DNA of 64,000 nt from an uncultured Candidatus Saccharibacteria bacterium. Its GTDB lineage: Bacteria; Patescibacteriota; Minisyncoccia; Phycocordibacterales; CAIJYI01. The stretch lies in contig CAYPFT010000001.1 of the NCBI GenBank assembly GCA_964410165.1, positions 38,341-102,340 of the forward strand. Direction: 5' to 3'. The notes beneath the pieces were generated by a model. It was given only the letters and a program-made list of their open reading frames with translations. It was not told the DNA's origin and did not search any database. This document shows, piece after piece, positions 2,613 to 62,933 of the stretch (positions are counted from its first letter, which is position 1; each line of letters starts with the position of its first letter). The position numbers and the translations under genes are program-made.

Positions 2613-2614
2613 GT

Positions 2615-3498: not shown

Positions 3499-3669
3499 TA
3501 CCTTACGCACGATGGGAAAGATTTGGTCGGTGAGTCCGCCCTTTTGGCGGTCTCTCCGCCAAATCTTCCGCTTCCGACGCTCTATTTTGGCGGTTCCACC
3601 GCCAAGAGGCGGAGAAACCGACCAAAATTCTACGCCGAAACCGTACGGTATCACAATCATGCGTAAGGT
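3499..3669 (+). mobile_element. Family-1 MITE, copy A (~171 bp, TIR ...cttacgcac / gtgcgtaag...)
   Basis: The termini taccttacgcacgatgggaaagatttggtcggtgagtcc and ggagaaaccgaccaaaattctacgccgaaaccgtacggtatcacaatcatgcgtaaggt are shared with the copies at 24838-25063, 33308-33535 and 38280-38405. Confidence 0.7.
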
Positions 3670-3686
3670 GAGTGAGTAAAGTAAAT

Positions 3687-3722
3687 AAGGGCGCGATGTT
3701 TTCCATCGCGCCCTTTGTTTTG
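3687..3722. terminator. Bidirectional rho-independent terminator between the SDR gene and ETF-QO
   Basis: Hairpin aagggcgcgatg-ttttc-catcgcgccctt followed by tgtttt; the other strand also has an A/T run. Confidence 0.55.
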
Positions 3723-3729
3723 CTCCCTT

Positions 3730-5385: not shown

Positions 5386-5388
5386 AAT

Positions 5389-6345: not shown

Positions 6346-7115
6346 AAGAGTACCCCTCGTTCTGTAAGTAATGAAATAAATTCATCAATGCTTTCGGCAC
6401 GAATGCCTTTGGGGCGCACAGGCGGAGAGCTTACTCGAAGAATTTTTGTCATCGGCGACATGTCTACTCCCAAAATTTCTGGAGAAAGCGTTTCAATCGG
6501 TTTCTTTTTCGCTTTCATAATATCGGGAAGTTTTGCCCGGCGCGGTTCATTGAGGCGTAGATCAACCGAGATTACCGCCGGCAAATCTACCGAAAGGGTT
6601 TCAATCCCCCCATCAACCTCCCTTATCGCCGTTGTTCTTTCTCCGTCAATCGTGATTTTTGAAACCGATGTCGCTTGCGGAAAGCCAAGCAGAGCGGCAA
6701 GCATTGCCGGCACTTGTCCGGCATCGTCATCGGTCGCTTGTCTACCCATGAGAACAAGACCAGGAGATTCCTTTTTAATGAGAGACGCGAATATCCGCGC
6801 CGCGCAAAATGGCTCTCGGCATTCGTTCGTTACGACATGAATCGCGCGATCGGCGCCGATGGCAAATGCCGTGCGCAATACATCTTCCGCGACCTTGTCT
6901 CCGATCGTTACGGCGATCACTTCGACAACCATTCCATTTATCAATCCGGACTCTCTCATGCGAATCGCTTCCTCAAGAGCAACCTCATCGAAAGGGTTCA
7001 TCACCATCTTTACTCCGTCGGTTACTACGCCGGATCCGTCCGGGCGTATTTGAATTGTCAATGCGGGGTCAATGACCCGTTTGACGCCAATGAGAATTTT
7101 CATTTTTTCGTTCAT
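6342..7115 (-). CDS. etfB: Electron transfer flavoprotein beta subunit
   Basis: MNEKMKILIGVKRVIDPALTIQIRPDGSG... The start at 7115 was chosen because GTGAGGTGA lies 7 nt upstream. Overlaps the etfA start by 4 nt. Confidence 0.85.
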   Translation of the reverse strand: MNEKMKILIGVKRVIDPALTIQIRPDGSGVVTDGVKMVMNPFDEVALEEAIRMRESGLINGMVVEVIAVTIGDKVAEDVLRTAFAIGADRAIHVVTNECREPFCAARIFASLIKKESPGLVLMGRQATDDDAGQVPAMLAALLGFPQATSVSKITIDGERTTAIREVDGGIETLSVDLPAVISVDLRLNEPRRAKLPDIMKAKKKPIETLSPEILGVDMSPMTKILRVSSPPVRPKGIRAESIDEFISLLTERGVLL

Positions 7116-7304
7116 TTTTTTCACCTCACTTATTTTGTTAATTTCAATGAAACAAGATGTTTCTGTACTTATCAGTAGCAATAAAGTATGAATATGTCAA
7201 TAATTGACTACAATGCGATAAAGTAGTAGCCTCGGGAAAGATATTGACAAAGAGATTAATTGCTTTGCAATTTTTCACAACCAGCAGAAAGAGGTATAGA
7301 GAGA

Positions 7305-8653
7305 TGAACAAAACAAGATTTGACAAACGCATTGTTTTCGCAGGTGCGTGTCGTACCGCCGGTGCCAGCGTTCTTACCGGCATTGGCGGTGGCGGATTTT
7401 GGAGTAACAGCGCGCATGAACTCATGACGACTTGTGTACTTGAAACTCTGCGCCGCACCAATGTTCCGATCGGGGATGTTGACGGCGTTGTAATGGGAAC
7501 TTGCATGCATGACCCGCGCGTGCTCAATGTCGGGCGCATTGTTGCTGTACTTGCGGGACTTCCCGAAGAAATTCGCGAATCGTTTTTCCTCGGCGAGTAC
7601 CTGAGCGTGGAAACCGTATCAAACAGGTCGCTTGCATCGCATGTGGTTGGCGATACGGTGAGTTTCAACTGCGGTTCGGGACTTGTTTCAATCATTAACG
7701 CCGTTCGTCGCCTTCTTTTGGGAGAAGGAAAGGCATACATTGCCGGTGGTGGAGAAAGCATGTCGCATGCTCCGCTTCAAATACCGCGGACGGCAAAAGG
7801 TGAAAAGCCGTACAGCCAGCGGGACTTTGTCGTCAAGAACGGGGAAAATCACGACCTCTTTGTCGCGATGGAAAACGGCGTGACGGTTACGGACGCATTG
7901 CTTCACGGTTTACGCGATCCATTTACCGGATTGCATTACGGAGCGACGGCGGATCTCGCCGCGGTAAAGTATGGCATCACACGTCGGGAACAAGACAAAG
8001 CGGCGGTGATTTCCCACTCTCGCGCGCGGAAAGCTCGCGATGCCGGGTACTTTGCTCCGCAGATTGTTCCCATACGGACTCGCGATGCGGAAGCGCGGAT
8101 AATTGATTTGGACGAAGGAATTCGGACCGACCTTACCGAAGGAGTCCTCGCTTCCCTCAAACCGTACTTCACCACGGACGGCACGGTAACGGCGGCGACG
8201 AGCGCTCTCGTTTCCGACGGTGCGGCGAGCATGCTTGTCATGACGCTTGAAGAAGCGCTTCATAGCGGCATCGCTCCGGACGCTGAAATCCTTGACTATG
8301 AGTTCGTGGCGGGCGACCCATCGTATATGGGCGTTGTCCCCATTCTTGCCATTCAGAAAATTTACGAACGGTGGGGATTTGGCAAAGATACCGAGAATCT
8401 CATGCATATCAATAATGCCGCTTTTGAAGCAACCAACTTGTCCGTCCAAAAGCTCGCAGAAGTTCCGAAGAATCGTTGGAATTGGTGGGGGGATGCTATC
8501 TCCGGCTTCGGTCATGCGGTGGGCGGAAGCGGCGCGATGCGCACGGTAGAGGGAGCGTACATGCTCAAATTCCTTCCGGAATACGACTACGTACTCGTTT
8601 CTTTCTGCGTCGGCGGCGGACAGGCGGTTGCACTGCTTATCGGGCGCGTCTAG
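7305..8653 (+). CDS. Thiolase (acetyl-CoA C-acetyl/acyltransferase)
   Basis: N-terminal nucleophile motif SFNCGSGL. C-terminal GFGHAVGGSGAM and CVGGGQAV thiolase signatures. Start at MNKTRFDKR with AGAAAGAGGTA upstream. Confidence 0.8.
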
Positions 8654-8788
8654 TACAAAAATGCTTTGCAACAGAGCAGGCGAGACCCAAACTCTTGACT
8701 GTCTTTCAACAACAGAGAAAGGTGAAAAAAGATGAAATTAAAACAGAAAGCAGGGATCTTTGTCAATCAACAAATAAAGAGGCACATT

Positions 8789-10015
8789 ATGAACAATCCG
8801 ATAAAAAAGGTCGTCATCATTGGCGGCGGAGCCATGGGCGGCGGTTTCGCGGCTCGCATTGCCCGAGACGCGGGCAATCAAGGAGTAAGAACCGTTATAA
8901 TTGAACACCCGGACCGGGTAGATGCGGCGAGGCAATCGTTTTACGAACGCATCCATCGCTGGTTCAAGCTTGGGCACATTCCATTCGCACGAGTGGAGGA
9001 ACTCGTATCCTACGTCACATTCACCGGAAATCCGGCGGATGCGGCGGATGCAGATTTCTTTCTGGAGTGCGTCCCTGAAAACCTCGAACTCAAACAAGAG
9101 ATTTTCAGAACATACGATGCGATACTGCGTCCCGGCGTCATTATGGCGTCAAATACATCGTCGCGTCTCATCGGGGATATTGCGCAAGCCACCAACCGTC
9201 CGGAGCTTGTCGTCGGATTCCACGGCATGCAGCCGCCGACGAGCAGACCGCTCCTTGAAGTCATTCGTTCATCAATGACCTCCGATGAAACGGTGGAGAC
9301 GGTAACAAACTTCGCGGAAGGTCCGCTCAAGATGGTAACGATTCTCTCGAAAGACAGTCCGCTTGCCATCGTGAATCGCCAGCTCCTTGTCATTTTGGAT
9401 GAAGTCTACCACTGGCTTGAGCATTCCAATGTGAATACACTTGACATAGATGAGGCAAACAAGGACTGGCCGGCAGGATTTGTCACTCTCTCCAATTTCC
9501 TTGGTCTTGATGTAGTCTTGGAAGTCGGGAAAAACGGCAAAGTGGCGTATCCGGATCGTGTCGTCATGGGCGATCTCATTCCCGAGATGGTAAAACACGG
9601 ACTGGTCGGAAAGAAAAACGGCGAGGCGTGCGAGGGCTTCTATGCTCTTGATCCGGAAGAAGGTTCAGCGTTTGAAAATTTACGCAACGAACTCTTTTCG
9701 GATTTTCAAATTGCACGCCGGCATGACATTACCGGAGCGATGGTATATGAATACGCCATGCTCCGCGGGATGAATGAAGCGGCACTCATCCTTGAAGAAG
9801 GGGTGGCGAGTAAGAGTGACATTGAACGCGGGACCGTCGTCGGACTTGGCATCAAAAACGAAGGACTTTTGCATGCCGCGGATGCGTACGGCATTAATCG
9901 TCTGGTCGTTGCCCTCACGAAGCTTGAAAGCAAACACGGCATGCGATTCCATCCTGCGAAAATTCTCGTTGATATGACAAAGAGTGACGGGACATTCTTC
10001 GGGGATGAGTTGTAA
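8789..10015 (+). CDS. 3-hydroxyacyl-CoA dehydrogenase (NAD-binding, with C-terminal dimerisation domains)
   Basis: KKVVIIGGGAMGGGFAARIA Rossmann motif and a 3HCDH-like body. Start at MNNPIKK with AAAGAGG upstream. Confidence 0.8.
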   Translation: MNNPIKKVVIIGGGAMGGGFAARIARDAGNQGVRTVIIEHPDRVDAARQSFYERIHRWFKLGHIPFARVEELVSYVTFTGNPADAADADFFLECVPENLELKQEIFRTYDAILRPGVIMASNTSSRLIGDIAQATNRPELVVGFHGMQPPTSRPLLEVIRSSMTSDETVETVTNFAEGPLKMVTILSKDSPLAIVNRQLLVILDEVYHWLEHSNVNTLDIDEANKDWPAGFVTLSNFLGLDVVLEVGKNGKVAYPDRVVMGDLIPEMVKHGLVGKKNGEACEGFYALDPEEGSAFENLRNELFSDFQIARRHDITGAMVYEYAMLRGMNEAALILEEGVASKSDIERGTVVGLGIKNEGLLHAADAYGINRLVVALTKLESKHGMRFHPAKILVDMTKSDGTFFGDEL

Positions 10016-41233: not shown

Positions 41234-43381
<2,148 letters not shown>

Positions 43382-50200: not shown

Positions 50201-51313
50201 TCATGCCGCATCATTCTTTAAAATTCTTTGTATCTCTCGTTTCCTTTGCCGCGGTGAAAGTTTCGCGAGCCGCTCCGTTTGCCGGTAGAAACCCTGAAAA
50301 TCGCGATTGGAAAATTCAAAAAGCTTTTCGAAGAGAGGTACCAGATTTCCGTAATCGTTTGTTTCACTCACGCGGGCGTTGTTCAGAGACTTTTTAAACC
50401 AACCATCGTAGCCGCCGTATCCGCCCCAGCTTTCTTTCAGTACGGCGTAATCTTCTCGCATTTTTTGAAAAACGTTTCGTTTCAAAAGACGCGTTTCTTT
50501 CGGCGAAAGATTTTTCATGTACAGCGTATCGAGTTCACGCCATGTTGCGGCGACAAGGTTTGCAAATTCAACCGACCTTTGCGTGCGTTCGAGGATCCGC
50601 TTCGCCAAAAGAACTTTTTGGTCTTTTTCGTAATGTTTTTCCACCCACAAGTATTGGCCGATTCTTCCGACAAACACGGCGAACGATTCATTGAAAGCCG
50701 GCTCGCCCGGTATGCGCAATTTTTCATGAGCCATTTCGTGGAAGACGGTACTCGCGTACTCGTAATCTGGATATTCAAAAAGAGTGTTCATTGCCGGGTC
50801 GGCGAAATTGCCACCCGTGGAATATGCCGTGACGCCGCGAACGGAAACGTCATATCCTTCGCGCGACAGTTTTTTCTCGTATTCTTTGGCGAGCCGCTCG
50901 TCAAAGAATGTCAGATGAGAAGCGCATCCGGCGAAAGGGAAACACCATGTTTTCGGCCGTACCGAAAATTCCGGCGTTGCAGTAAGCGACCAGTTTGCGA
51001 ATTCTCTGCCGGTGTCCATGTAGGTGGTGAAGCTTTTCGTCGCGGGAAGGCCGAGTTCTCGTATCGCGAATTCGCGTATTTCAAGTACGGAACGCAAATC
51101 CTTTTTTAATTTTTCCGGCACTTGTTTGTCGTCGAGCATGTCGCGTATCGGCACGCGGTTGGTTAAAACGCGGGTTTCTCCGGCGACCAATTGCGCGTAG
51201 TAACCCGGGCCGGTAAAATTCGCGCAAGAAACCAGACAAGAAGATACGAAAGGAAAAATAATAAAAAGAAAGGCAAGCCGAAATGTTTTGGCGCGTTTGA
51301 GAAGAGTGTTCAT
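50201..51313 (-). CDS. Putative zinc metallopeptidase lipoprotein (HExxH)
   Basis: Lipoprotein-like signal FPFVSSC. HEMAHE zinc-binding motif. Confidence 0.55.
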   Translation of the reverse strand: MNTLLKRAKTFRLAFLFIIFPFVSSCLVSCANFTGPGYYAQLVAGETRVLTNRVPIRDMLDDKQVPEKLKKDLRSVLEIREFAIRELGLPATKSFTTYMDTGREFANWSLTATPEFSVRPKTWCFPFAGCASHLTFFDERLAKEYEKKLSREGYDVSVRGVTAYSTGGNFADPAMNTLFEYPDYEYASTVFHEMAHEKLRIPGEPAFNESFAVFVGRIGQYLWVEKHYEKDQKVLLAKRILERTQRSVEFANLVAATWRELDTLYMKNLSPKETRLLKRNVFQKMREDYAVLKESWGGYGGYDGWFKKSLNNARVSETNDYGNLVPLFEKLFEFSNRDFQGFYRQTERLAKLSPRQRKREIQRILKNDAA

Positions 51314-51379
51314 GCGGTACCTCGCGTAGCGGTATCAAAGGGTTTCTTGTTTCAAGATAGCATGTTTTCCAGAGAACAG

Positions 51380-51860
51380 AAACGGATATGCCAGTAAAAA
51401 CAAAAACCGACTGATGCCGGTTTTTGCGCCAAACTTGGTGGAGATGGGGGATCGGTCACAAGTATTTTTTCTGACAAAAAATCTTGCGACCCCGGCTCGC
51501 GGTTTTTGCCTTGTGCTTCGCACAAACAAAAACATCGCTGCGCCTTTCAATCCCCCCACGTGAGCAAAGCAGTTTGCTCACTCATCTCCACAACTCAAAA
51601 CAACAAACCGCCCTAAATCGGGCGGGTTGTTTTGGCTGTGGAGATGGGGGGAATCGGTCACAGATAAATTTTTGTTGCTACAAAAATTTTCCGCGACCCC
51701 ACCTCGGCTGTTTTGTCGCTTGCGAGCGATAAAACATGCCTGCGGTTTTCGATTCCCCACGGAAGCCAAGCAGTTGGCTTCCTCCATCTCCACCGAATTT
51801 TGGCAAAACAAAAACCGACTGATGCCGGTTTTTGCGCCAAAATTGGTGGAAACTAATGAA
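51380..51860. repeat. Array of degenerate repeats derived from the ssrA 3' end (old att remnants) plus 45-bp direct repeats
   Basis: tggagatggggg(g)a(a)tcggtcaca occurs at 51438 and 51643. Inverted ...catctccac... occurs at 51585 and 51784. ~110-bp diverged repeats lie at 51484-51595 and 51690-51800. The 45-bp direct repeat aaaacaaaaaccgactgatgccggtttttgcgccaaaNttggtgga lies at 51393 and 51804. Confidence 0.6.
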
Positions 51861-52175
51861 TGACGTTAGAACCTATATTCTGGAACCAGATGTGTGCTCT
51901 TCCCTTAAGATCGTTCAATCGTGGTAATGGTTGAGGGACACTAGAATCACTTGAGTGGGTAGTTTACACTCTCGGTTGGTATTTCTACCACTTTGAATAG
52001 AACCACCATCACATCCTACTCTCCAGGATGTTAACTATGTTAATGACATTCATTAACTGAATAAAAAAAATAGGCCTGAAAAAGTGCCTATGGGGTAACG
52101 GATACTTTTCGCGAGATTTATCCGGATTCTTTGTTTGAGTCCATTCCGGACAAGGGGTATAATGATATTGACACC

Positions 52176-53489
52176 ATGCCTCTATCCACTACTGATATAA
52201 AAGATTTATTTGTTTCTTTAGAACCAAGGGAAGATTGGTCATTTCGTGATGTTGGGAGATCTCAGACTACGGCCTTTACTCATGACTATCACCGGTATCC
52301 GGCAAAGTTTATCCCCCAAATCGTGAAGAAACTTATAGAAGATTATGCTCCAAGTGGGACTCAGGTTGTTTGCGATCCTTTTGGTGGATGTGGCACTACT
52401 CTTGTGGAAGCAAAAATGTTGGGTCACAAGAGTATTGGATTTGATATAAATCCAGTTGCGAAGTTGATAACTCAAACAAAGACCACTCCAATCAAACCAA
52501 GAACTCTCACTAATTACAGAAGTAAATTCTTGGAGGATTATGATAATGCTCCCACGGTATCGTATGAACACCACCCCAGGATTGGATACTGGTTTGAGCC
52601 AGATATGGTTCGAGAGCTGGACAGAATATATTTTGCTATAAAGGAAATAAAAAACCACAATGTTAGAAGGTTCTTCTTGTGTTCTTTTTCACACAACTTG
52701 AAAAATTGCTCGCGTTGGTTAATGAAAAGTATTAAACCAACTATTGATAAGGAAAAAGTGCTACCTAATCCAAAAGCGACATTCTTGCGTCATCTTGATT
52801 CGATGATACGAAAGAATGAGCAGTTTTACACTTCGTTAGTTCAGTCTAAGTACACGAATGTCCCAGCGAAAATGTACAGGAGGGATTCGACAAAGAAGTT
52901 TCCTCTGGAAACAAATTCTGTAGACCTCATTATTACATCACCACCTTATGTCACTTCATACGAATACGCTGATTTACATCAGCTATCTTTGCTCTGGTTT
53001 GGGGATGACCCGAAGCATTTCAAGAAGTGGCATCATTTTAGCAAAGAGTTCATAGACTTCAGAAGGACTTTCATAGGCACTAGCTCAAAGGCAGAAAAAA
53101 GGGGCGAGTTCGACAGTGAGATAGGCAATCAAATAGTGAATGCGTTAATGTCTGTGGAGCGACCTTTGGCGATTGATGTTGCGAATTACTTTTTGGATAT
53201 GAAGAAGGTTTTTGCAGAAATGCATAGAGTGTTAAAGCCAGGAGGCAAGGCGTGCATCATAATCGGAAATACAAATCTGCGCGGTGTAGAGATTTCCAAT
53301 GCTCAGGTTACTGCAGAGCAAATGCAAGTTGCTGGGTTTAAAAAACTCGATTTCATCAAGCGGGAAATACCCAACAAGATGATTACTCCCTGGAGAGATT
53401 TAGACAGTGGCAAGTTCACCGGCAAGGATAATCCTTCAAAAACTAGAGCTTATGAGTTTGAGTATGTTGTTGTGATGGAAAAAGTTTAG
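52176..53489 (+). CDS. DNA amino-methyltransferase (N6-adenine or N4-cytosine; motif I DPFGGCGTT, motif IV SPPY)
   Basis: CDPFGGCGTTLVEA SAM motif and IITSPPYVTSYEY catalytic motif. Start chosen at MPLSTT, 11 nt after a TATAAT. Confidence 0.8.
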   Translation: MPLSTTDIKDLFVSLEPREDWSFRDVGRSQTTAFTHDYHRYPAKFIPQIVKKLIEDYAPSGTQVVCDPFGGCGTTLVEAKMLGHKSIGFDINPVAKLITQTKTTPIKPRTLTNYRSKFLEDYDNAPTVSYEHHPRIGYWFEPDMVRELDRIYFAIKEIKNHNVRRFFLCSFSHNLKNCSRWLMKSIKPTIDKEKVLPNPKATFLRHLDSMIRKNEQFYTSLVQSKYTNVPAKMYRRDSTKKFPLETNSVDLIITSPPYVTSYEYADLHQLSLLWFGDDPKHFKKWHHFSKEFIDFRRTFIGTSSKAEKRGEFDSEIGNQIVNALMSVERPLAIDVANYFLDMKKVFAEMHRVLKPGGKACIIIGNTNLRGVEISNAQVTAEQMQVAGFKKLDFIKREIPNKMITPWRDLDSGKFTGKDNPSKTRAYEFEYVVVMEKV

Positions 53490-55774
53490 TCTTCTCCAAG
53501 TTGCTCTGCTCTATTGGTGAAAGAAAGGTCAAGAATAAACTTGCTTATAGCTTTAAGTGAGTTGGGAATTGCCCAATCTCGTTTGTCGGGCTCATTTTTC
53601 ATTTCAAAAAACATTGCAATAGCATAAAGATAAATGCTGGCGAAAAATCGTTTTTGGATCGTAGACATCATATCTCCAGATGCATACTTTGGATTTCTTT
53701 TTGGAAATTCAATAAGTACGTCGGGTTCTTTATTTATGTAGACTGTAATTCCTTCTTGGTCTTCCACAACCTCAGCGATATCAACTCCAGTCCATCGTTT
53801 ACCAGATGGCGAAGCCCAGTCTTCTTTTGTCCAGTCTTCTTTGGGAATATATTTTCTTTCCGGGAGTTTAAGGGCAAGTTTTGTCGGCTGTTTTGGAGTA
53901 CCAGGCTTTCCTACATGCGGTTCTTCAAATTCACCTATGATTATTTTCAGCTCAACTTTGAGTGATTCCTGATTTGGTCGTGTAAGTTCAAAAGTCACAG
54001 TGTCGGTTTCTCCCGGTTTTGCGCCTTTGGCTGGTTCAATACGAATAGGCAAGAAGCCGTCTTTTAATGAATACTGATTGATTTGAACCAATTTTGATGC
54101 TGTCCAGCGAAACTCACCGCTGTCTTTGGTTCGTATGAGGTAGTCATTCTGCGCGTCTGTTTTTATTCTCAATCGAGCGTAACGATTGAAAGGAATTGTT
54201 TTTTCATTCTCCTTGAGTTCAAAGAATGTAGGTATGTATTCTCCTTTGTATTCTTTTTTATTTTGTCCCTCGGGTCTCTCTGTGGGCACCTCTTCTCCCA
54301 CATTCAAGAGTGAAGCAAGAAAAGGATTGTCTTTAACCAATCGACCTATATAACGTGATAGGTCTTGGTCTTCTGGTTGAGCATTCTTAAGTTTTCTTTC
54401 TTTGTACTCGCGATTTAACTCTTTCAGTGTTTCATCACCTTTAATAGAGTCAATGAGTCGTTGTTCAAATTCTTCTCTCTCCGGTATGTCAATGAGTCCA
54501 CTTCTTGCAGTATGGAAAACCTTGTTTGCTTCGTGGCTTGCGTTTGATAAATCAATGTGGATTGTCATGAACGGGGCGAGGTCTGGTAACAAGCACTCTG
54601 TTTTTAGAAAGTTTACGGAGTATGTATGTTGAGCTTGTCCGTTCACAGTTAGAAAGACTTTTTCTGTCTGGCTCTTATATGATTTCCCCTGCTCACTCTC
54701 ATCATTGAGAATGACTATTTCAATATTTCTTAACCCAAAAATACCTAACTCTGCTTTGAGCGGTAACACTTGGCGAACAATCTCCTTATCTGAAAATTGT
54801 TTTTTTAGAAGTCTCCAAAGACCGTAGATTCTCGTGACTTTATTTTTATCGGAATAACCTCGAAGCTGAGTACGAAGCTCGTTTATTTGAATTGGCAATG
54901 GCATTGAGAAGTACCTCTTGTTGATTTCACGAGCTAATTCTTTTTCTCTTTGACCGGTTATGAAAAGGTTGCTATTTCTAAGAGCGTAACTATATAGACG
55001 AACAAAACTTCCACTCTCAAAGCTACCCCCATCTGGCAAGATTTTAAGAGGTTCAAAAGGAATGGATGGTACATTGTTGTCTACAACGCAGTATTCATAG
55101 CGTTCTGCCTTAAATCCGGGTTCGTACCATTCACGGACTAGTGAAAATCCCCAAAGATCTTCTGCGCCGTTTTTTATATTTGGAGCTCGTCGTGAGAGAA
55201 CGAGTTGATACCCATTCCCACAGAACTTCAAAGCGGCGGAACCTCCTTGGTTGTATACACCATGAGCGAATTTTATCCTGATTTTATTTGAGCCACCTAT
55301 TGAAAGAAATGTTTTTGGAAAATCGTTCGGGTGTTGTCCTTCACCAGAGTCGAACACTGATATTGTTGGTTTGTCAGGAGAGCCCTCACCAGTTATACGA
55401 ACAGTCTTTAGGGCAATTTCTCGTACTTCTTTATCAGATAAGTCAAAGTCTGCGATTTTTTTACCAAAGAATTGTTTTATTGCTTCTCCCTGGCTTTGCG
55501 GAGCTGACGGTGAGGTAGGATCTATTCCGGTGTCCAAACAGAATCTAACTAATAGCGCATCGATTCCATTTGTAATTTTCTCAACCAAAGCACCAATGGG
55601 ATCTGGTGCTTGAGCCTTGATAGTTCCAGCATTGTTTTCCTGTCCGCCGTACGGTACCCATTTGCAAGTTTTGAAAAACGGGTGTGTGCTAATCAATTCC
55701 GTGACCTTTTCTTGGCTGGTCGCTTTTATGAGTTCCAAGAGAACATCTTTATTTAGCTTTTGTTGAGGAGTCAT
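53486..55774 (-). CDS. Large (762 aa) uncharacterised protein with N-terminal GHKL/MORC-like ATPase motifs; candidate restriction/defence partner of the methyltransferase
   Basis: Bergerat-fold motifs ALVEKITNGIDAL (ExxxNxxDA) and ISVFDSGEGQ (DxGxG); a glycine-rich segment KFAHGVYNQGGSAALKF follows. Convergent with the MTase gene, with 4-nt overlapping ends. Start chosen at MTPQQK, which follows the stop of the small upstream ORF by 4 nt. Confidence 0.5.
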   Translation of the reverse strand: MTPQQKLNKDVLLELIKATSQEKVTELISTHPFFKTCKWVPYGGQENNAGTIKAQAPDPIGALVEKITNGIDALLVRFCLDTGIDPTSPSAPQSQGEAIKQFFGKKIADFDLSDKEVREIALKTVRITGEGSPDKPTISVFDSGEGQHPNDFPKTFLSIGGSNKIRIKFAHGVYNQGGSAALKFCGNGYQLVLSRRAPNIKNGAEDLWGFSLVREWYEPGFKAERYEYCVVDNNVPSIPFEPLKILPDGGSFESGSFVRLYSYALRNSNLFITGQREKELAREINKRYFSMPLPIQINELRTQLRGYSDKNKVTRIYGLWRLLKKQFSDKEIVRQVLPLKAELGIFGLRNIEIVILNDESEQGKSYKSQTEKVFLTVNGQAQHTYSVNFLKTECLLPDLAPFMTIHIDLSNASHEANKVFHTARSGLIDIPEREEFEQRLIDSIKGDETLKELNREYKERKLKNAQPEDQDLSRYIGRLVKDNPFLASLLNVGEEVPTERPEGQNKKEYKGEYIPTFFELKENEKTIPFNRYARLRIKTDAQNDYLIRTKDSGEFRWTASKLVQINQYSLKDGFLPIRIEPAKGAKPGETDTVTFELTRPNQESLKVELKIIIGEFEEPHVGKPGTPKQPTKLALKLPERKYIPKEDWTKEDWASPSGKRWTGVDIAEVVEDQEGITVYINKEPDVLIEFPKRNPKYASGDMMSTIQKRFFASIYLYAIAMFFEMKNEPDKRDWAIPNSLKAISKFILDLSFTNRAEQLGED

Positions 55775-55781
55775 CTTTTTA

Positions 55782-56000
55782 TAGTTTAAAGTCCCGTCTC
55801 TTGGGGAAGTGGAATTTTGCTTTTGTGTTTCTGACATTTCGTTCTATTTCGGAAAAGATTTTGTTTATCTCGTCTTCAGTGTAGTCGTAAACACTCCTGT
55901 TCGCACAGTTTCCAAGAACCTTAAGACGTTTTAAGACCATGTTCGTCCGGAGAGTGGCGAGTCTTACAAAACGATCTCGATTTGTTTCTTTTCCTTTCAT
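55782..56000 (-). CDS. Small basic ORF translationally coupled to the large GHKL-like gene
   Basis: 73 aa. Its stop lies 4 nt before the ATG of the large gene. TATAAA lies directly upstream of its own ATG. Confidence 0.3.
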
Positions 56001-56343
56001 ATTTTTTATACTACAAGGGTTGTTTTATATTTGCAAGGGCGTAACGTATTTATGTAGGGTAGCTTATACATGAGTAAAAGTAAAGTCAAGAAAGCAGAAA
56101 GTGGAATTTTACTTTCAGGGGGGAAGGTAATACCATGTAAATACAACTGAATATCGTGCTCGAAAGAGCTAGGACCTAAACCAGTAGATTTGTCTCTGGC
56201 ATGGTCTCAAATCGTTGAGGATAGAAAACCCGTCATTCAGGGCGTCCTCAACGTTATAGGGGGAAACTCCTATAGGGCCGCAAGGCCTCCTGGTGGCGGG
56301 TTTTGTGTATCCCACCAGGAATTATCAATTAACAAAATTAGAT

Positions 56344-56571
56344 ATGACTGGTGCAATAAAATACAACATCATAGGTCTTTGGGTAGTGGTCGTTGGATTG
56401 GCGTTTATGACACTGAGTGGATTAAGTAGTTCTCGAAGTCAGTTCGAGCAACTCAAGAATGCTCTGCGAGCACAGGAAAGTTTTAATAACTCACTTGTTC
56501 AACAGTTGAATTTGCAGGGTGCTGTGAACGAAAACCTACTGAATTTCGATGGAGCGATCATCAACCAGTAA
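56344..56571 (+). CDS. Small membrane protein, hypothetical
   Basis: MTGAIKYNIIGLWVVVVGLAFMTLSGL TM segment, 75 aa. Confidence 0.25.
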   Translation: MTGAIKYNIIGLWVVVVGLAFMTLSGLSSSRSQFEQLKNALRAQESFNNSLVQQLNLQGAVNENLLNFDGAIINQ

Positions 56572-57005
56572 GTGCACGAAGTTCACACATTCACAATAAT
56601 ATGAAAGAAAGAGAGACGAACAACTCATCGGGGATTATTGCAATTTTTATATTACTGCTGATTCTTGTTCTTTGGTCGTTGACTTGGGATACGGATGAAG
56701 AGCAAGAGCCGTCAGTTCTTGATTCTCCAGAGTTCTTTCAAGAAATGTATGAGCTTGGCGGAGGGCAAATCAAAGAATAGTTTTAGCTTCTCTGGCAACC
56801 TCACTCTTTTTGGACATCTCAAATCAAAAGTAAAGAAACTGGGCACGGAGTGCTTCTGGGGGTAATCGATTAAGGGGATGGACACATCAAGTGTGCTCTG
56901 TGACATCACGGGCACATCTGAGACACTTTCGGTGGGTTGGTAATGGTATCTATCATCTAAAGTTGCTTTCTACCAATACGGCATGGTTTCCGTTAAAATT
57001 GAAGA

Positions 57006-57683
57006 ATGACTCAGGGCAAAATAGAACCAAGACTGCTCGATGAGCTTGAGCGTCTCTTCCAGCGTGAATCTTTTGGTATCGAAGTCATTTTGAAAAGGGC
57101 TAAAATCGGGATTCCTATTCTGGATGGTTTTGAATCCAACCAGAAGTATCTTTCTTGGCTGAAAACACACAAAGATAGATTTTTTGATATTCAGTCAGCA
57201 AGAGCGGACTTAGCTCGAAAGTTTAAGCTACCTCTCCCTCACTCTCAATGGATTGAAGGGTATTTGCTACTTGGAAAAAAGTTTAAGGATTTTGATACAA
57301 CTATCCCTTTTGGGATGTCATTTTCTCGTGGATGGGATAAGGCGGGTTTTTCGTGTGCATTTGAATTTGATAAAGATGAAGAATGCGTCAACATTAAGAT
57401 TCTTCCGGGGGCAAGTTATCGGGATGTGAGTAAATTCATTCGTGATAATAAGGGTGAGATTGAGAAGGCGTTGAGCTCATTTAAGCATAGAGTAGTGCCC
57501 ATTCGAGTACGGAGTCAAAAAGAGCGTGATGAACTTGTTTATGCTTGCTACAAGAAGGGGTTATTGGATCGGTATGGGAGAGATAAGACTTCTGATGGTG
57601 TTTGGCTTCCAGATGAGATTTTGAATATGGATATGGATATGCGACGGAAAATCATTGAGCAACAAATCACATTGAGAAGTTAA
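57006..57683 (+). CDS. Hypothetical island protein
   Basis: 225-aa ORF. No motif recognised. Confidence 0.4.
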   Translation: MTQGKIEPRLLDELERLFQRESFGIEVILKRAKIGIPILDGFESNQKYLSWLKTHKDRFFDIQSARADLARKFKLPLPHSQWIEGYLLLGKKFKDFDTTIPFGMSFSRGWDKAGFSCAFEFDKDEECVNIKILPGASYRDVSKFIRDNKGEIEKALSSFKHRVVPIRVRSQKERDELVYACYKKGLLDRYGRDKTSDGVWLPDEILNMDMDMRRKIIEQQITLRS

Positions 57684-57926
57684 GTGTAAACGCTTAACGG
57701 TTTATCGCGGGACTTCCGTTTTCTTTAGACTGCCTGGTGTAAGGCAGTTTTTTTATGGCATTCACACAAAGGTCGATTCAAAACTTCAAGCGGTTGTATC
57801 TCCAAGAATTCGAGGAGGAGCTTTCGGATGCGGAAGCAGAACGGAGGGCGGGATATCTCCTAGAAGTTTATAGGGTCGTCTTTGGACTGCCAAGCGTAGA
57901 GACGTTCTTTGACAACAAAATAGACG

Positions 57927-58478
57927 ATGAGAAAGCAAAGTGAGCTAGTCACTATCTGGGAGAGTGTGTCGATTATTCCCGGATGGTTGCGGTTGCTGTG
58001 GATGACGAAGCAGTACTCGGATGAGGAACTGGATGAGTTGGAACAGATTGATGATGAGTTTCGTGCTTTTTCCAGAGAGGAGGAAATCAAACATCGGAAG
58101 TGGTTGCGGGAGAATCTCCCTCGGACTACAGATGGGTGGTTGAAGATTTTTCCAGAGGCAGAGAAACTCATCCCTCGGAAGAAACGGAAGAATCAACGGA
58201 GATTCGAGGAGATGCTGGAAGTAGCGAGGGATGTGGACTTGGAGGATGTGGTATCGGAATACGTCGATTTGCGACGGGGCGGTACGCATCGGTTGGTCGG
58301 GCTATGTCCATTCCATGCAGAGAAGACACCCTCATTCGTTGTGTTCACGGATAACCCCCACTACTACTGTTTTGGGTGTCATGAGCATGGGGATGTCATT
58401 ACATTCGTGAGAAAAATTAAAAACTTAAAATTCAAAATGGCTGTGCTGGTGCTGTATAGGTACTCACAGCAAGATTAA
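57927..58478 (+). CDS. CHC2 zinc-finger protein (DnaG-primase-type zinc-binding domain only)
   Basis: VSEYVDLRRGGTHRLVGLCPFHAEKTPSFVVFTDNPHYYCFGCHEHGDVITFV matches the primase CHC2 finger. The start may be at the internal ATG at 58002. Confidence 0.6.
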   Translation: MRKQSELVTIWESVSIIPGWLRLLWMTKQYSDEELDELEQIDDEFRAFSREEEIKHRKWLRENLPRTTDGWLKIFPEAEKLIPRKKRKNQRRFEEMLEVARDVDLEDVVSEYVDLRRGGTHRLVGLCPFHAEKTPSFVVFTDNPHYYCFGCHEHGDVITFVRKIKNLKFKMAVLVLYRYSQQD

Positions 58479-58482
58479 AAAT

Positions 58483-60168
58483 ATGAGCAAGAAAAAAGAA
58501 AAAGAAATTGTGGAAAAGAAATCCATTGATCAAATTGCAGAAGAGGAGAAAACAAAGAATGAGAATCCTACTCCACCAAATGAAGCAGATACGGCTGATG
58601 GTGAAGATGTTGAGTGGCCGGGTGTGTCGTGCATTCTGCAAGACGGGTCATTAGTCGAGATGTTGCATGATTCGGTAAAGCGGACTACTAAGTTGGCGGT
58701 GTATAAAGACGGCAAAGTAAGTCTTGAGGATAGCGTGCGGTTCGATGATAGGACGGTGTTTAAGCCATTAGCTCCCAATCAAAGTCTTCTTGAGACTGGG
58801 TACATTTTGTTTCCTTCGGAGGTCGGAGATTATCAAAGTAATGAAGCCCTGTATTACGAAGTGAGAGCGTTCGTAGATAAATATGTGCAACTTCAAAATG
58901 AGTTTCTCTCGGTCGTTGCAGTCTACATCATGATGAGTTGGGTATACGACAAGTTTAGGAGCGTTCCCTATCTGCGAGTGACAGGTCTCTGGGGAAGCGG
59001 AAAATCTAGATTGTTGTCGGTGGCGGGAAATCTCTGTTACAAGACGGTGATGGCGGGCGGGTCAATCAGTAATGCGGCTTTGTTCAGGACTCTTGATTTG
59101 GTGAAGCCAACTCTTGTGTTTGACGAAGCCGAACTTAACGAAAAAGAGTCAACTGAAATGCGGATGGTTCTACGGCAGGGCTACAGTGCGGGTACTCCGG
59201 TTTCGCGGATGGAGAAGTTACCAAACGGAAAGATGTATATCCAAACATTCGATGTCTTTGGTCCAAAGATTATCGCTTCTTTGGCTCGATTCCATGATGT
59301 TGCTCTTGAAAGTCGATGTCTCACAGGTTGGATGCCTCCACACATGGATAGTGGAAGACCCATTGAGTTAACCAAAGCATTCAAGGAGGAAGCGTTGGCA
59401 TTGAGGAATAAACTTCTGATGTTCAGGTTTAAGAATCATCATCTGATGAGTGCGGACGAGAGTGCGTTGGGAGGGATAAGTCTTCCTCGGTTGAAGCAGA
59501 CGGGACTTGCGGTGATGAGCGTGGCGAAAATGCTTGGGGTACAACCAATCGAAGATGTAAAGAAGTTTCTGGTTGAGTACGAACAAGAACTCGGTATTGA
59601 GCAAGCAGACTCGGTAGAAAATGACATTCTACTCTGCGTGTTAGATCTTCTTACCCAACCAGGAATCAGGTATGCGGGCAAAATTCGTACGGGTGTGGAC
59701 TTGGCGGAGAAGTTCAACAATCTTCACTATGAAGACTACTCAAACAGGGAGACGAAAGAGTACAACTCTAGTTCGATGGGGGTGATGAAGTATCCGGGGT
59801 CAAAAGTGTCTGCGAAGAAAATCGGTTGGTATGTGCGGAAGATGGGCTTTCGAGTGGATAGAGATGCCCGGGGCTTCTACATCTCTATTGTGAAGGAGTA
59901 TCCAAAGATTCGGTTGCTGGCGAAGCGGTACGGGCTTGATTCTCTATTCGAGCTTCCAGAGGGCAATCTCAACGGAGTGAAGCGAGTCGTGGACGCTGCT
60001 ACTAAGGCACAAAATTTGAAGGCGCAGGAAGAGCGGAAGCAAAAGAGGGAGCTTGAAGAGAAACGGAAGAAAGAGGCGGAGGAGAGGGAGCGAAATCGTA
60101 AACCAATGTCAGATGAAGAATACAAGGAGATCTTTGGAGAGAACTCTCTACCTAAAGATACTCTTTGA
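58483..60168 (+). CDS. P-loop NTPase, putative replication/primase-associated ATPase of the island
   Basis: Walker A VTGLWGSGKSRLL and Walker B PTLVFDEAE. C-terminal K/E-rich tail. Confidence 0.45.
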   Translation: MSKKKEKEIVEKKSIDQIAEEEKTKNENPTPPNEADTADGEDVEWPGVSCILQDGSLVEMLHDSVKRTTKLAVYKDGKVSLEDSVRFDDRTVFKPLAPNQSLLETGYILFPSEVGDYQSNEALYYEVRAFVDKYVQLQNEFLSVVAVYIMMSWVYDKFRSVPYLRVTGLWGSGKSRLLSVAGNLCYKTVMAGGSISNAALFRTLDLVKPTLVFDEAELNEKESTEMRMVLRQGYSAGTPVSRMEKLPNGKMYIQTFDVFGPKIIASLARFHDVALESRCLTGWMPPHMDSGRPIELTKAFKEEALALRNKLLMFRFKNHHLMSADESALGGISLPRLKQTGLAVMSVAKMLGVQPIEDVKKFLVEYEQELGIEQADSVENDILLCVLDLLTQPGIRYAGKIRTGVDLAEKFNNLHYEDYSNRETKEYNSSSMGVMKYPGSKVSAKKIGWYVRKMGFRVDRDARGFYISIVKEYPKIRLLAKRYGLDSLFELPEGNLNGVKRVVDAATKAQNLKAQEERKQKRELEEKRKKEAEERERNRKPMSDEEYKEIFGENSLPKDTL

Positions 60169-60508
60169 GGAAGTTAACTTCGTTCACATCGTTAATGTGG
60201 GGGTGAGGGTAAGTCATACTCTCACCCCTCTTAGCGTGTGTGCGAATCTACCCAAAGTTGTTAACACTTTTTTGGGATTATTAACCTATACATATATAGA
60301 ATAATGTGGTATAATATATTTATGAAAATAAAGTATCTAAGCCATATTTTCTAATCTTGTATGGATTTCGAGTCACTCAAAGATTGTGTAATCGTAGACA
60401 TGATTGAGAAAGTCAAAAAAATGACTCGGGATGAGCTTGAGAGTCGTGTGATCGATTTTGAATCTCGAAAAATCGAAACTCTCAAAACCTTAAATGAGGT
60501 AATAGATT

Positions 60509-62200
60509 ATGGAAACAAAAACAAAACTTAGATATGTAGCGTATGCTCGTAAGTCGACTGACCAGGAAGAAAAACAAATCACTTCCATTGAAGATCAGTT
60601 GCGGGAAATTGAGCGGATAGGTGCTGATTGTCACATTACAAAGAAACTCACGGAAAAACGGACTGCTAAAACTCTGGGTCGTCCTGTTTTTGCTGAAATG
60701 TTGCAGTTGATTCTGGATAAGAAAGTAGACGGGATTGTTTGCTGGAAGCTGAATCGGTTAGCAAGAAATCCAATAGATGGAGGGCAGATAATCTGGATGT
60801 TGCAAAATGGGGTTATCAAAGAAATCAGGACTGATGATGGTATCTACACTCCAGAGAGTGACATGATAATGCTTCACATCCACTTCGGGATGGCTCATCA
60901 GTTCAGTTTGAATCTCAGTAAGGACATCAAGAGAGGTTTACAGGGTCGTCTTCGTGAGGGAGTTCGTCCAAGTATTGCTCCTATCGGGTACATAAACAGT
61001 CAGTATCACATCAAGAGGATGGAAGAAATCTTGGTTGATGAGGAGCGGTTCCCAAAAGTAAGAAAGTTATTCGATTTAATGCTTTCTGGACAATACTCTC
61101 CTCTCCAGTTGGTTGAGATTGCGGATAAGCAACTCCATCTGGAAACAAGGGGGACGAAGAAATGGCCGAGAAAAGCGATGAGTAAGTCAAATATGTATCG
61201 GGTTCTCACCAATCCTTTCTACTATGGGTCGTTCGAGTTTCCGGAGGGTAGCGGTGATTGGCATGTTGGTAAACATAAACCAATGATTACGGAAGAGGAG
61301 TATGACAAAATCCAATCTCTCCTTGGTCGTGAGGGTAGACCGAGACCGAAGACTCACATCTTTGCTTACACTGGATTGATGCGGTGTGCAGGTTGCCAGG
61401 CTCGCGTGACTGCTGAAGAAAAATGGAAACACCAACAGAATGGGAATAGTCACCATTACATCTACTATCGGTGTACGGGTAGTCAGGGTCCAGAGTGTTT
61501 GGAGAAGTCGGTTGAGGTGAAAGTTCTGGAAAAGCAAATTGATGAATTTCTCTCTAAGATTCAGATTCCACCAGAGTTCCATGAATGGGCTGTTGAGGAG
61601 TTGAAGAAACTCCATGAAAGAGAAAAGGGTGATAGGAACTCGCTGATTGTGAAGCATGAGCAGGACTATAAGGACTGTGTATTCAAGCTGGATCAGTTGA
61701 TGGAGCTTCGATTGGAGGGCAAGGTTTCGGATGAGATGTTCTCTCGGAAGGAATCACAACTCTTGAAGCAGAAAGCAGAATTGAAGAGATTGTCTGATGG
61801 AGATGATAAGAGAGTAGATGACTGGTTGGTTCGTCTTGAAAGCACTCTCACCTTTGCGGAGAGAGCCAGAGAGGAATTCCAAAAGGGTGATATTGCGAAG
61901 CGGAGGCAGATTCTTACTGCTTTGGGGACTGAGCATATCCTCAAAGACCGGGCAATCCACATCAATACGGAAAAACCACTCCTTGTACTTCAAGAAGTGG
62001 TTTCCGAGAGCAATCGTCTGTTAGATAAGTTAGAACCTCCCAAAAGTGTTGGAAACAATGGGCGGATTAAACAAATCTATGACAAAAGTTCATCAATGTG
62101 GAGATGGGGGGAATCGAACCCCCGTGCAAAAAGGAATTCTCGCTCCTTCTACAAACATAGATTATTTGTTTTTGGTTTAAGTGGAAAAAGTAAGGAATAA
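60509..62200 (+). CDS. Large serine recombinase (resolvase/invertase-type N-terminal domain plus recombinase and zinc-ribbon domains)
   Basis: YVAYARKSTDQEEKQITSIEDQ catalytic-serine motif. The recombinase domain (RPSIAPIGY) and CxxC...C zinc ribbon (RCAGCQA...YYRCTG...C) are both present. The 3' end reads through the ssrA terminus. Confidence 0.85.
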   Translation: METKTKLRYVAYARKSTDQEEKQITSIEDQLREIERIGADCHITKKLTEKRTAKTLGRPVFAEMLQLILDKKVDGIVCWKLNRLARNPIDGGQIIWMLQNGVIKEIRTDDGIYTPESDMIMLHIHFGMAHQFSLNLSKDIKRGLQGRLREGVRPSIAPIGYINSQYHIKRMEEILVDEERFPKVRKLFDLMLSGQYSPLQLVEIADKQLHLETRGTKKWPRKAMSKSNMYRVLTNPFYYGSFEFPEGSGDWHVGKHKPMITEEEYDKIQSLLGREGRPRPKTHIFAYTGLMRCAGCQARVTAEEKWKHQQNGNSHHYIYYRCTGSQGPECLEKSVEVKVLEKQIDEFLSKIQIPPEFHEWAVEELKKLHEREKGDRNSLIVKHEQDYKDCVFKLDQLMELRLEGKVSDEMFSRKESQLLKQKAELKRLSDGDDKRVDDWLVRLESTLTFAERAREEFQKGDIAKRRQILTALGTEHILKDRAIHINTEKPLLVLQEVVSESNRLLDKLEPPKSVGNNGRIKQIYDKSSSMWRWGESNPRAKRNSRSFYKHRLFVFGLSGKSKE

Positions 62201-62491
62201 TCAAAATCTTTCTCCACCCTAGCTTCTTTGTTTTGAAAATAAATCGAAGCGGTTTATATTTTCTATCCCGATTTGTATTACACCCGTATCCCACCCTCGG
62301 GAGAGGAGAGATAAAGACGCCGGTTTACGCTAAAGCGAATCCGGGATGAAAAGCAAAGTATGGTGATACAACGCTTTTCACCTTAGAAGAAAGTTTTGCA
62401 ACTATCAGTTTCCTGTGCGCTATAACGGGTGAACAGGAGTATCCGGTTTGCAAAGCGAGAAGACGACTTCTTGTCGAAGCCAGTCATCCCC
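62098..62491 (-). ncRNA. ssrA: tmRNA (SsrA)
   Basis: 5' end GGGGAUGACUGGCUUCGAC matches the tmRNA consensus. Acceptor pairing GGGGAUG/CAUCUCC carries G3:U70. T-arm GGGGGUUCGAUUCCCCC. Resume context GAUAGUU-GCA followed by a 24-codon tag ending FALA-UAA. Confidence 0.75.
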
Positions 62492-62502: not shown

Positions 62503-62933
62503 TATCAGGGAAAGAGTATCAGTATCAGGAATTTTTATCCATTGCTGATTTTACTAAGCCGGAGATAAGTCGAATCGCGAGACGAATAGACATATTGATT
62601 TCATTGAAAGTTTCCTCATTTATAAACGCAAGGTCTTTCGCCACAAGTAATTGGCTCTCTGTTTCAAGTAATGACCCTTTTGCTATGGCGTAAAAATGCG
62701 CCTTATCTTTTGCAGAATTTCTTCCGAAGCCTTCTGCGATGTTTGAAACAATGGAAATCGAAGCTCTTCTGATTTGGTTTGTTAGACCAAACCTTTCGTC
62801 CGGAGGAAATGTTTTTGTAATCTTATAAATTACCAGCACAATTTTCTGCGCTTCTTTCCATGCTTCTAAGTCTGTAAAATTTTGAATTTTCATAATCGTT
62901 TTCGTCCCTGATACTGATACTTTCCCCTGATAC
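62503..62933. mobile_element. Inverted-repeat-flanked cassette carrying the four-helix-bundle gene
   Basis: 28-bp inverted repeats gtatcagggaaagagtatcagtatcagg (62503-62530) and cctgatactgatactttcccctgatac (62907-62933). Confidence 0.5.
62525..62893 (-). CDS. Four-helix-bundle protein of the 23S rRNA intervening-sequence (IVS) protein family
   Basis: 122 aa, DLEAWKEAQKIVLVIYKITKTFPPDERFGLTNQIRRASISIVSNIAEG...KGSLLETESQL is typical of TIGR02436. Confidence 0.7.
   Translation of the reverse strand: MKIQNFTDLEAWKEAQKIVLVIYKITKTFPPDERFGLTNQIRRASISIVSNIAEGFGRNSAKDKAHFYAIAKGSLLETESQLLVAKDLAFINEETFNEINMSIRLAIRLISGLVKSAMDKNS

Follow-up and report, generated by a model that had tools for sequence, protein, structure and literature searches.

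The 64-kb stretch of contig CAYPFT010000001.1 analyzed here (the window, to which all coordinates refer) contains a repeat array at 51397–51850 that belongs to the 3′ flank of ssrA, the gene for transfer-messenger RNA (tmRNA). The minus strand of the window is the tmRNA sense, and L-numbers denote comparison contigs or loci of relatives. Sequence comparison revealed what is apparently an undescribed, conserved module coupled to ssrA in bacteria of the candidate phyla radiation (CPR). The reading that we favor, tentatively and with somewhat less than even confidence, is that the array represents two vertically inherited, paralogous structured modules of the ssrA 3′ flank in a clade of the Parcubacteria/Paceibacterota (CPR), most likely an RNA read in the tmRNA sense. 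The direct basis for this reading is the architecture, conservation, covariation, strand bias and fixed place of the modules behind ssrA, from which we infer a function; these properties agree with a functional module under structural constraint that is linked to the ssrA 3′ flank. In the orientation of the tmRNA, a module comprises the following parts:

Part 1: a tmRNA-type tail and an intrinsic terminator
Part 2: a 5′ arm, which is the reverse complement of the last ~22–24 nt of the tmRNA (whole T-loop, T-stem 3′ strand and acceptor 3′ strand)
Part 3: hairpin 1 (hp1) of 9–10 bp with a CUGC loop, placed in the arm exactly at the acceptor/T-stem junction
Part 4: an inner domain of two hairpins, which varies by unit type
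Part 5: a 3′ strand that repeats the T-loop/T-stem 3′ sequence of the tmRNA, plus the acceptor strand in about 40% of the units

The gene ssrA is among the most used integration sites in bacteria, and short repeats of its 3′ end are routinely taken as island borders or scars. A first-pass annotation of the window had read the array in this way, as decayed ssrA copies left at an island boundary by several successive integrations and excisions.

Architecture of the repeat array

On the minus strand, the tmRNA tail with terminator T1 is followed by unit B, an AGCC tail with terminator T2, unit A (which ends with ...CCACCA), AGUUUGGCG with a second T1, and the aminopeptidase gene. The end of the array, formed by copy 1 of a 46-nt repeat, lies 84 nt upstream of the aminopeptidase start codon (51313). 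The features of the array and of the tmRNA gene are as follows, with IR1 and IR2 as the two sections of the 5′ arm and C1 to C3 as the core copies:

62098–62491 (−): tmRNA gene (ssrA), identified by ARAGORN, Rfam (RF00023, 137.9 bits) and sequence
62097–62116 (−): core C3, the last 20 nt of the tmRNA gene, identified by sequence
51805–51850 (−): displaced original tmRNA tail (TCCAC-CA-AUUUUGGCG) and terminator T1, copy 2 of the 46-nt repeat; in L136, which lacks the island, this stretch is collinear with the end of the tmRNA
51794–51804 (−): tail′ descending arm, which pairs with the tmRNA tail; the tmRNA end, its tail, T1, tail′ and IR1 thereby make up the long hairpin P0
51637–51793 (−): unit B; 150.1 bits with covariance model (CM) R1, minimum free energy (MFE) −87.7 kcal/mol, z −9.55, covariation
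51784–51793 (−): IR1 of unit B, complement of the acceptor 3′ strand
51761–51782 (−): hp1 of unit B, with CUGC loop
51746–51760 (−): IR2 of unit B, complement of the T-stem 3′ strand and the T-loop
51637–51656 (−): core copy C2 of unit B, with hp2 and hp3 between IR2 and C2
51596–51636 (−): AGCC tail, terminator T2 (stem 51608–51625, terminator scan) and return arm
51435–51591 (−): unit A; 137.6 bits with CM R1, MFE −77 kcal/mol, z −7.84
51583–51591, 51560–51581 and 51544–51559 (−): IR1, hp1 and IR2 of unit A, followed by hp2 and hp3
51438–51454 (−): core copy C1 of unit A with a 2-nt deletion, followed by an encoded CCA (51435–51437)
51397–51442 (−): copy 1 of the 46-nt repeat, a CCA-AGUUUGGCG tail and terminator T1, which ends the array

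The 13-mer CCCCCATCTCCAC of the tmRNA end occurs at exactly three minus-strand sites (51438, 51638 and 62098), and 51637–51656 is identical over 20 nt to 62097–62116; the cores at these sites are direct repeats of the ssrA 3′ end of the kind that marks the ends of elements. With two degenerate inverted copies on the plus strand (51579–51591 and 51781–51793), the core matches total five, compared with 0.88 expected by chance. The two copies of the 46-nt direct repeat are identical at 45 of 46 positions (0 matches expected by chance). Two 26-nt stretches within them, 51809–51834 and 51401–51426, were also called as the arms of an inverted-repeat pair (I1), because each stretch is self-complementary internally. 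The terminator scan listed copy 1 of T1 only and not copy 2.

All repeats named in the first-pass annotation are present: the core copies, of which the deleted one lacks 2 nt, the inverted partial copies as degenerate matches, the perfect 9-bp hairpins (hp1 of both units), and the direct repeat. The repeats do derive from the ssrA 3′ end and did not prove unrelated to it. Other parts of the description changed. The direct repeat, given as 45 bp long with a weak hairpin, is real but has 46 nt, and its hairpin is a genuine minus-strand intrinsic terminator behind a tmRNA tail. The supposed ~110-bp diverged repeats with decayed copies are instead two full units of ~157 nt each with a ~200-bp period, and both keep the same fold.

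The repeat finder recorded a period of ~200–202 bp over the whole stretch (families D2–D4, D6 and D8). Units A and B are 72% identical and share the closing helix GUGGAGAUG/CAUCUCCAC, hp1 with its 9-bp stem and CUGC loop, and the inner helix GGGGAAUCG/CGAUUCCCC, which encloses hp2 and hp3. Three double changes distinguish hp1 of unit A from that of unit B, and all of them preserve pairing. The stretch with T2 (51596–51636) connects C2 and IR1 of unit A, and together they form another long hairpin, with 27 pairs and −44 kcal/mol.

A scan of the window with Rfam 15 at gathering thresholds returned only tmRNA and LOOT and no family for the units, and at E ≤ 10 over 51300–51900 there were only sub-threshold chance matches. 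Protein coding by the overlapping, same-strand open reading frames (ORFs) 51335–51559 and 51578–51811 (74 and 77 aa) was rejected, as no frame is conserved and only a 28-residue gapped local match was obtained. The resemblance of GAUGAG-hp1-CGU to the hammerhead arrangement CUGAUGAG-stem II-CGAAA is superficial (compared by eye), and no Rfam ribozyme matched. Template and variable repeats of a diversity-generating retroelement, considered on account of a bAvd-like neighbor gene, were likewise dismissed; neither a reverse transcriptase nor adenine-specific differences were found.

Secondary structure, covariation and strand polarity

The fold of the units is conserved by compensatory change. 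In a MAFFT-only alignment of 16 units, compensatory changes occurred in 31 of the 40 predicted pairs. CM R1 was built from 16 units, and in a CM alignment of 27 units 94.4% of the cells were paired, compared with 70.3% in shuffled controls and 33–49% with slid partners, and 37 of 40 pairs had changes on both sides. The covariation score was 0.648, while the shuffled controls scored 0.199 and the slid ones ≤0.113; the long-range helices (P2 and the hp2 base) covary too. Type C units (n = 6), in which hp1 and the closing helix surround a different two-hairpin core, have compensatory changes in 19 of 38 pairs. The units thus possess a conserved secondary structure that is backed by covariation, as is demanded of a structured RNA.

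Counted in the tmRNA sense, there are 32–35 G·U or U·G pairs and 10–16 A·C or C·A pairs. At one hp3 position G·U is the commonest state (14 G·U, 8 G–C and 3 A–U among the 27 units), and one U·G pair is invariant in all six type C units. Terminator hairpins of the same sense follow both units of the window and units of L126, L137, L138 and L141, of which the terminator scan scored those of the window only. The covariation, the fold of the type C units and the excess of G·U pairs suggest that the molecule is single-stranded and has the polarity of the tmRNA; RNA is the simplest candidate.

A palindromic repeat resembling repetitive extragenic palindromes or miniature inverted-repeat transposable elements, or a palindrome kept by replication template-switching, could also have been seeded beside the ssrA terminator and have no role in RNA or recombination. 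The units do have terminal inverted repeats (GTGGAGATG...CATCTCCAC), perfect local hairpins and long palindromes centered on terminators, and quasi-palindrome correction can imitate compensatory change. We nevertheless regard this explanation as very improbable. The full CM, run with filters off, found no copies in the 64 kb other than the two linked to ssrA (150 and 138 bits in sense orientation, compared with 11.7 bits for the antisense of the same place), and no dispersed copies were seen among 35 loci of relatives, in which every copy is ssrA-linked. Moreover, the covariation extends to the long-range helices, and the G·U and A·C counts are strand-biased. Palindrome correction should also remove hp1 or copy it into the tmRNA, but hp1 stays a one-sided insert.

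Coupling of the modules to the tmRNA 3′ end

The 5′ arm of a unit is the reverse complement of the tmRNA 3′ end of the same genome, with hp1 inserted within it; past hp1, the arm goes on to complement the T-stem 3′ strand and all of the T-loop of its own tmRNA. Compared with the upstream tmRNA, the arm scored 9–13 of a maximum of 14 (the value of 13 being 13/13 identical positions in L129), compared with 5–9 for the 3′ copy of the unit itself. The arm also follows lineage-specific changes of the T-arm in L126 (GCGAAAG/CTTTCGC), L129, L134 and L159 (CCGGG instead of GGGGG). The inverted copies therefore complement the local tmRNA end and covary with it, which argues that they are not random partial copies and speaks against a scar.

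In every one of the 30 distinct cases, the sequence from CAUCUCCA through a spacer to UGGAGAUG forms one hairpin of 19–34 bp, which bears the terminator at its tip; the spacers of these 30 long hairpins are unrelated in sequence. In a reconstructed read-through transcript of the window without its island, the 3′ 24 nt of the tmRNA are predicted to be captured by the arm in an interrupted hairpin of ~50 bp (−83 kcal/mol). In the same predicted fold, judging by its bracket string, the acceptor stem seems to be restored by pairing with the 3′ core of unit B.

Distribution in relatives and age of the array

Among the relatives found via the aminopeptidase gene, L001 contains the tmRNA, AGCC, T2 and a partial unit, and L004 the same with a full unit, so that T2 is directly 3′ of the tmRNA in both. 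In L003, a unit that is almost the same as unit B comes after a terminator of the T1 type. Metagenome contigs were searched with a 21-base pattern that required GTGGAGATG and AACTGCTT, which resulted in 31 loci. Wherever the contig was long enough (all but 3–4 of the 31 loci), the unit starts 40–65 nt past a tmRNA-type 3′ end, and in about 30 metagenomic contigs the module lies directly 3′ of the tmRNA. Tags and T-arms differ widely among the loci with ARAGORN tmRNA calls. CM R1 detected one or two units per locus in the relatives, and the names of the SmpB proteins place the clade in the Parcubacteria/Paceibacterota. The ~60% of units in which the 3′ core lacks the acceptor strand still keep the fold; truncated units occur in L001, L126b, L129 and L004b.

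The 21-base pattern found no copy in viral contigs, and blastn gave no match in phages and plasmids. The stored matches of the pattern GGAGATGN{8,9}AACTGCTT (15 specified bases) in genome contigs were all due to chance. No integrase or recombinase was located beside the units in about 35 loci of relatives, and a limited literature search of incomplete coverage found no description of such an element.

The tmRNAs of the window and L138 are 88.8% identical. L138 has the same order of units (B then A), and unit B is 85.5% identical to L138a and unit A 80% to L138b. This shared order and the tmRNA-like divergence indicate that the array is old and vertically inherited. Judged from these identities, the two-unit array is ancestral to the window and L138 lineages and evolves about as fast as the tmRNA while its fold is kept. 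L001 and L004 lack the T1-unit B module, for which a deletion between core repeats may be the most economical explanation, loss being as likely as gain.

A further conserved stretch, GTGAC(C/A)GCGTGCGAAGCACACAATT(C/T)CCCGTCCGTCGTC, was observed 3′ of type B and type C units in L133, L135, L136, L139, L142 and L155, and the ssrA flank may hold further modules. In L004, a gene for a 2537-aa surface protein (Big_5, CarboxypepD_reg and PG_binding domains; 1401–9014) lies between the full unit and a 3′ half-unit. This half-unit (9456–9552; hp2, hp3 and a degenerate core) adjoins the aminopeptidase gene, the same position as that of unit A in the window.

The serine recombinase island and its border

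The tmRNA end and its own tail are separated in the window by an integrated island, which together with the genes at its ends has the following coordinates:

51851–62097: large-serine-recombinase island in the tmRNA acceptor 3′ strand, delimited by Pfam matches, a drop in GC content, and the comparison of empty and filled sites
60509–62200 (+): large serine recombinase gene (563 aa; Pfam Resolvase, Recombinase and Zn_ribbon_recom)
50201–51313 (−): aminopeptidase gene, the left neighbor of the repeat array

At the island-free sites of L136 and L138, the tmRNA continues directly as ...CAUCUCCAC-CA-tail-terminator-GGUGGAGAUG..., whereas at the filled sites of the window and L142 foreign DNA separates ...CAUCUCCAC from (A/G)U(C/U)UCCACCA-tail. 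The foreign DNA ends with GGTTCTAACGTCATTCATTA in both the window and L142; L139 and L142 have an insert with the same left end at the same position, and L127 has one with a variant of this end. TCCAC alone is common to both ends of the island (the 51850/51851 side and 62098–62102). GC content is ~0.47–0.50 left of ~51850 and ~0.40 to its right. In the region 51851–62097, a large serine recombinase gene lies at one end, the two ends share a short core, and relatives have attB in the empty state; the region is thus an island of the large-serine-recombinase kind. Based on the empty sites in L136 and L138 and the filled site in L142, its border is 51850/51851, and the island splits the tmRNA 3′ end at TCCAC. 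The first-pass annotation had placed the boundary at the core 51641–51660, which is instead the 3′ core of unit B, ~200 bp away. The repeat array is chromosomal and older than the island, which on its arrival cut the tmRNA off from its original tail.

The site is an integration hot spot: islands occupy the tmRNA core or unit cores in the window, L124, L125, L127, L139 and L142, among which those of L124 and L125 are at unit cores. This hot spot, the truncated units of the relatives and the fact that the copies are genuine ssrA 3′-end fragments, one of them with a 2-nt deletion, agree with the first-pass view of the array as functionless, neutrally decaying leftovers (ssrA fragments and att arms) from several earlier rounds of island integration and excision. 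We consider this improbable all the same. Decay to 72% identity should break helices, yet 94% of the cells are paired, compared with 70% after shuffling, with compensatory change in 37 of 40 pairs. The architecture is constant across tmRNAs with very different tags and T-arms, and the inverted copies, rather than being random partial matches, complement the local tmRNA end exactly. The ~200-bp intervals are gene-free and were never seen to hold cargo genes in the canonical position. What stands of the scar is therefore the ssrA-derived repeats and a hot spot with islands; the conserved, covarying fold, the presence of the module in ~30 other contigs, the orthology with L138 and the misplaced island border speak against successive integrations and excisions as the origin of the array.

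Several further observations concern the island itself. The recombinase ORF overlaps the tmRNA gene by 103 nt on the opposite strand. It spans the junction of island and tmRNA, its final 34 codons being antisense to the tmRNA 3′ part, and in an excised circle it would have 555 aa and a different C-terminus; integration thus alters the tail of the recombinase. A search for the recombinase of the window in the related loci matched only this antisense-tmRNA tail. Past the junction (62050–62097, minus strand) the tmRNA gene has no encoded CCA and no terminator is visible, so that read-through of ssrA would enter the recombinase gene in antisense. The left end of the island, GGTTCTAACGTCATTCATTAGTTTCCAC (51851–51880), resembles the tmRNA T-arm and acceptor GGTTCGATTCCCCCCATCTCCAC (62098–62125), and GGTTCTAAC motifs also occur 3′ of the tmRNA in L158. 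The insert of L142 (locus positions 5059–9893; 4.8 kb) has the same tmRNA position and left end as the window island and encodes a His_Phos_1 protein, a HAD hydrolase and two proteins of unknown type, without a recombinase; it may be a degenerate or satellite island.

The window island also contains a LOOT RNA (56173–56288, plus strand; Rfam RF03000, 72.7 bits, the gathering score being 46.4). Within 52131–55837, the island encodes a type II DNA methyltransferase (PADLOC MTase_II, E = 1.8e-56) and, adjoining it in convergent orientation, a 783-aa protein without Pfam or PADLOC match, which may be its partner nuclease. Outside the island, a gene of the 23S_rRNA_IVP family (62525–62893, minus strand; weak bAvd-like match) lies between the tmRNA gene and smpB, which directly adjoins the tmRNA gene in L001 and L004. 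The sole tRNA called in the window, a 94-nt ARAGORN tRNA-Lys(ctt) at 43210–43303 (plus strand), is a false positive inside the 3′ end of an EF-G-type coding sequence.

Weighing of the evidence and proposed mechanism

Several points weigh against a conserved RNA module. The conservation of GTGGAGATG and AACTGCTT is partly a consequence of the search design, as the pattern fixed both; independent checks come from L159, which was reached through SmpB, and from L138b, both of which retain the CUGC loop with altered closing pairs. The sequences of most hairpin loops are variable, and conserved unpaired nucleotides are few. The closing helix could covary in part because both of its strands were copied off the tmRNA end and not through selection for pairing, and template-switch repair can keep local hairpins perfect without selection. 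No promoter-like site was seen upstream of the units, between terminator and unit, and expression would thus need read-through of a canonical terminator. Nor is the module universal: among six tmRNA loci sampled via SmpB regardless of the presence of a unit, two (L155 and L159) contained it, and the other four had different DNA 3′ of the tmRNA, with island-like ends in at least L158. Finally, the core-tail-T1 repeat (~65 nt) shows 96–98% identity even though old units lie between its copies, close relatives have module types and terminators in shuffled combinations (T1 precedes type B here and type C in L136), and the direct repeat starts in the T-loop, where tDNA-targeting integrases leave repeats. 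The near-identity of the first and last core-tail-T1 segments looks like the result of recombination at the DNA level.

The last points, together with the patchy distribution, also count for a different origin, the main rival of our reading, which we regard as possible but on the whole unlikely. The units would be miniature, gene-less integrative cassettes of ~200 bp (tail, terminator, structured part and core), which a recombinase acting in trans inserted into a site reaching from the ssrA T-loop to the 3′ end; the copies and hairpins would be a recombination site of folded single-stranded DNA, and accretion at the core would have enlarged the array. Consistent with this, the modules are flanked by 19–20-nt direct repeats of the ssrA end from the T-loop on, as in Islander and Dehalococcoides islands, every module carries a replacement ssrA tail and terminator, and the window differs from L001 and L004 by one additional module exactly at the core. 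The layout (an R″-like arm, an extra-helical insert, an L″-like arm, a variable center, L′ and R′) is topologically similar to attC, and the strand-specific folding is compatible with single-stranded DNA. However, none of about 35 loci has an integrase with any unit, the sole recombinase, that of the window island, crosses over at TCCAC and not in the T-loop, and no copy was found in viral contigs, phages or plasmids. The arrays of the window and L138 are orthologous and no more similar than the tmRNAs, which argues for vertical inheritance. Furthermore, the fold is retained in the ~60% of units without the acceptor half of the 3′ core, the inverted arm agrees less well with the distal repeat than with the integrated context (TTC of the T-loop included), and a DNA site would hardly be expected to have a G·T mismatch as the most frequent state of one of its stem positions.

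For the structured RNA module that we favor, the following mechanism can be envisaged. In transcripts that read through the ssrA terminator, the arm would capture the tmRNA 3′ end in a hairpin of ~50 bp, which resembles an RNase III-type substrate. The 3′ copy of the unit itself (helix P2, and P1 where present) would compete for the same arm. The module might thereby act in cis in ssrA 3′-end processing, quality control of read-through, or insulation of downstream genes. As a by-product, the 3′ core copies may offer additional att-like targets to ssrA-specific islands. It is conceivable, but we think it rather doubtful, that the modules represent a new class of structured RNA wired to the ssrA of CPR bacteria, with a 5′ arm that is antisense to, and a 3′ strand that mimics, the end of their own tmRNA; such a class might control the maturation or availability of the tmRNA 3′ end, serve as decoy or landing pad for islands, or be an RNA or single-stranded DNA mini-cassette without its own recombinase.

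If the modules are what we propose, automated island callers would misplace borders in these genomes, as the first-pass annotation did by ~200 bp. An RNA would be a new tmRNA-linked non-coding RNA in CPR bacteria, whose RNA biology is little known, and a handle on how the tmRNA 3′ end is made or controlled. A DNA element, in turn, would be an unusually small, structure-defined cassette aimed at an essential RNA gene.

Comparison with known systems

Primer-binding sites of retroviruses and LTR elements are complementary to the 3′ 18 nt of a tRNA, and the module arm is complementary to the corresponding portion of the tmRNA (the 3′ strands of acceptor and T-stem, and the T-loop). In contrast to such sites, the arm is interrupted by hp1, no reverse transcriptase is nearby, and pairing with the terminal CCA is inconsistent among the loci. 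A second likeness is to RNase III processing stems and tRNA-like 3′ signals. In the rRNA processing stalks and in MALAT1-mascRNA, the end of a stable RNA is paired with a flanking complement in a long helix, or an acceptor-like element lies just downstream, as in the module. Here, however, a canonical terminator is at the tip of the helix, so that the complement would be transcribed only upon read-through, and the unit lacks mimics of the T- and D-loops.

The attC sites of integrons and the attP of CTX phage share with the modules two pairs of inverted boxes around a variable, branched center, an extra-helical insert on one strand, strand-specific folding, and tandem arrays beside a fixed primary site. 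Differences are the absence of RYYYAAC/GTTRRRY boxes from units A and B and of IntI-, Xer-type or tyrosine recombinases from the loci examined. The 'cassettes' would hold a terminator only, and the boxes copy the end of a host RNA gene and covary with it.

Tandem ssrA islands are classically recognized by direct repeats that comprise the final ~20 nt of ssrA and begin in the T-loop (Islander, PMC4383910; Dehalococcoides, PMC3146451), and the ssrA islands of Dehalococcoides are moved by the CcrB-like serine recombinase DsiB (PMC3146451). The window agrees with these systems in the ~20-nt ssrA 3′-end repeats from the T-loop in tandem downstream of ssrA, in the large-serine-recombinase island in the same gene, and in inserted DNA that brings a replacement 3′ end and terminator. 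It differs in that the modules are gene-free ~200-bp intervals with a conserved fold, without the cargo and integrase of an island, and in the hairpin-split inverted copy of the ssrA end, which is not described there. Moreover, the array is orthologous between relatives, and the resident island shares TCCAC only and not the 20-nt repeat. The serine-recombinase island of the window thus fits the tandem-ssrA-island kind, whereas the repeat modules do not.

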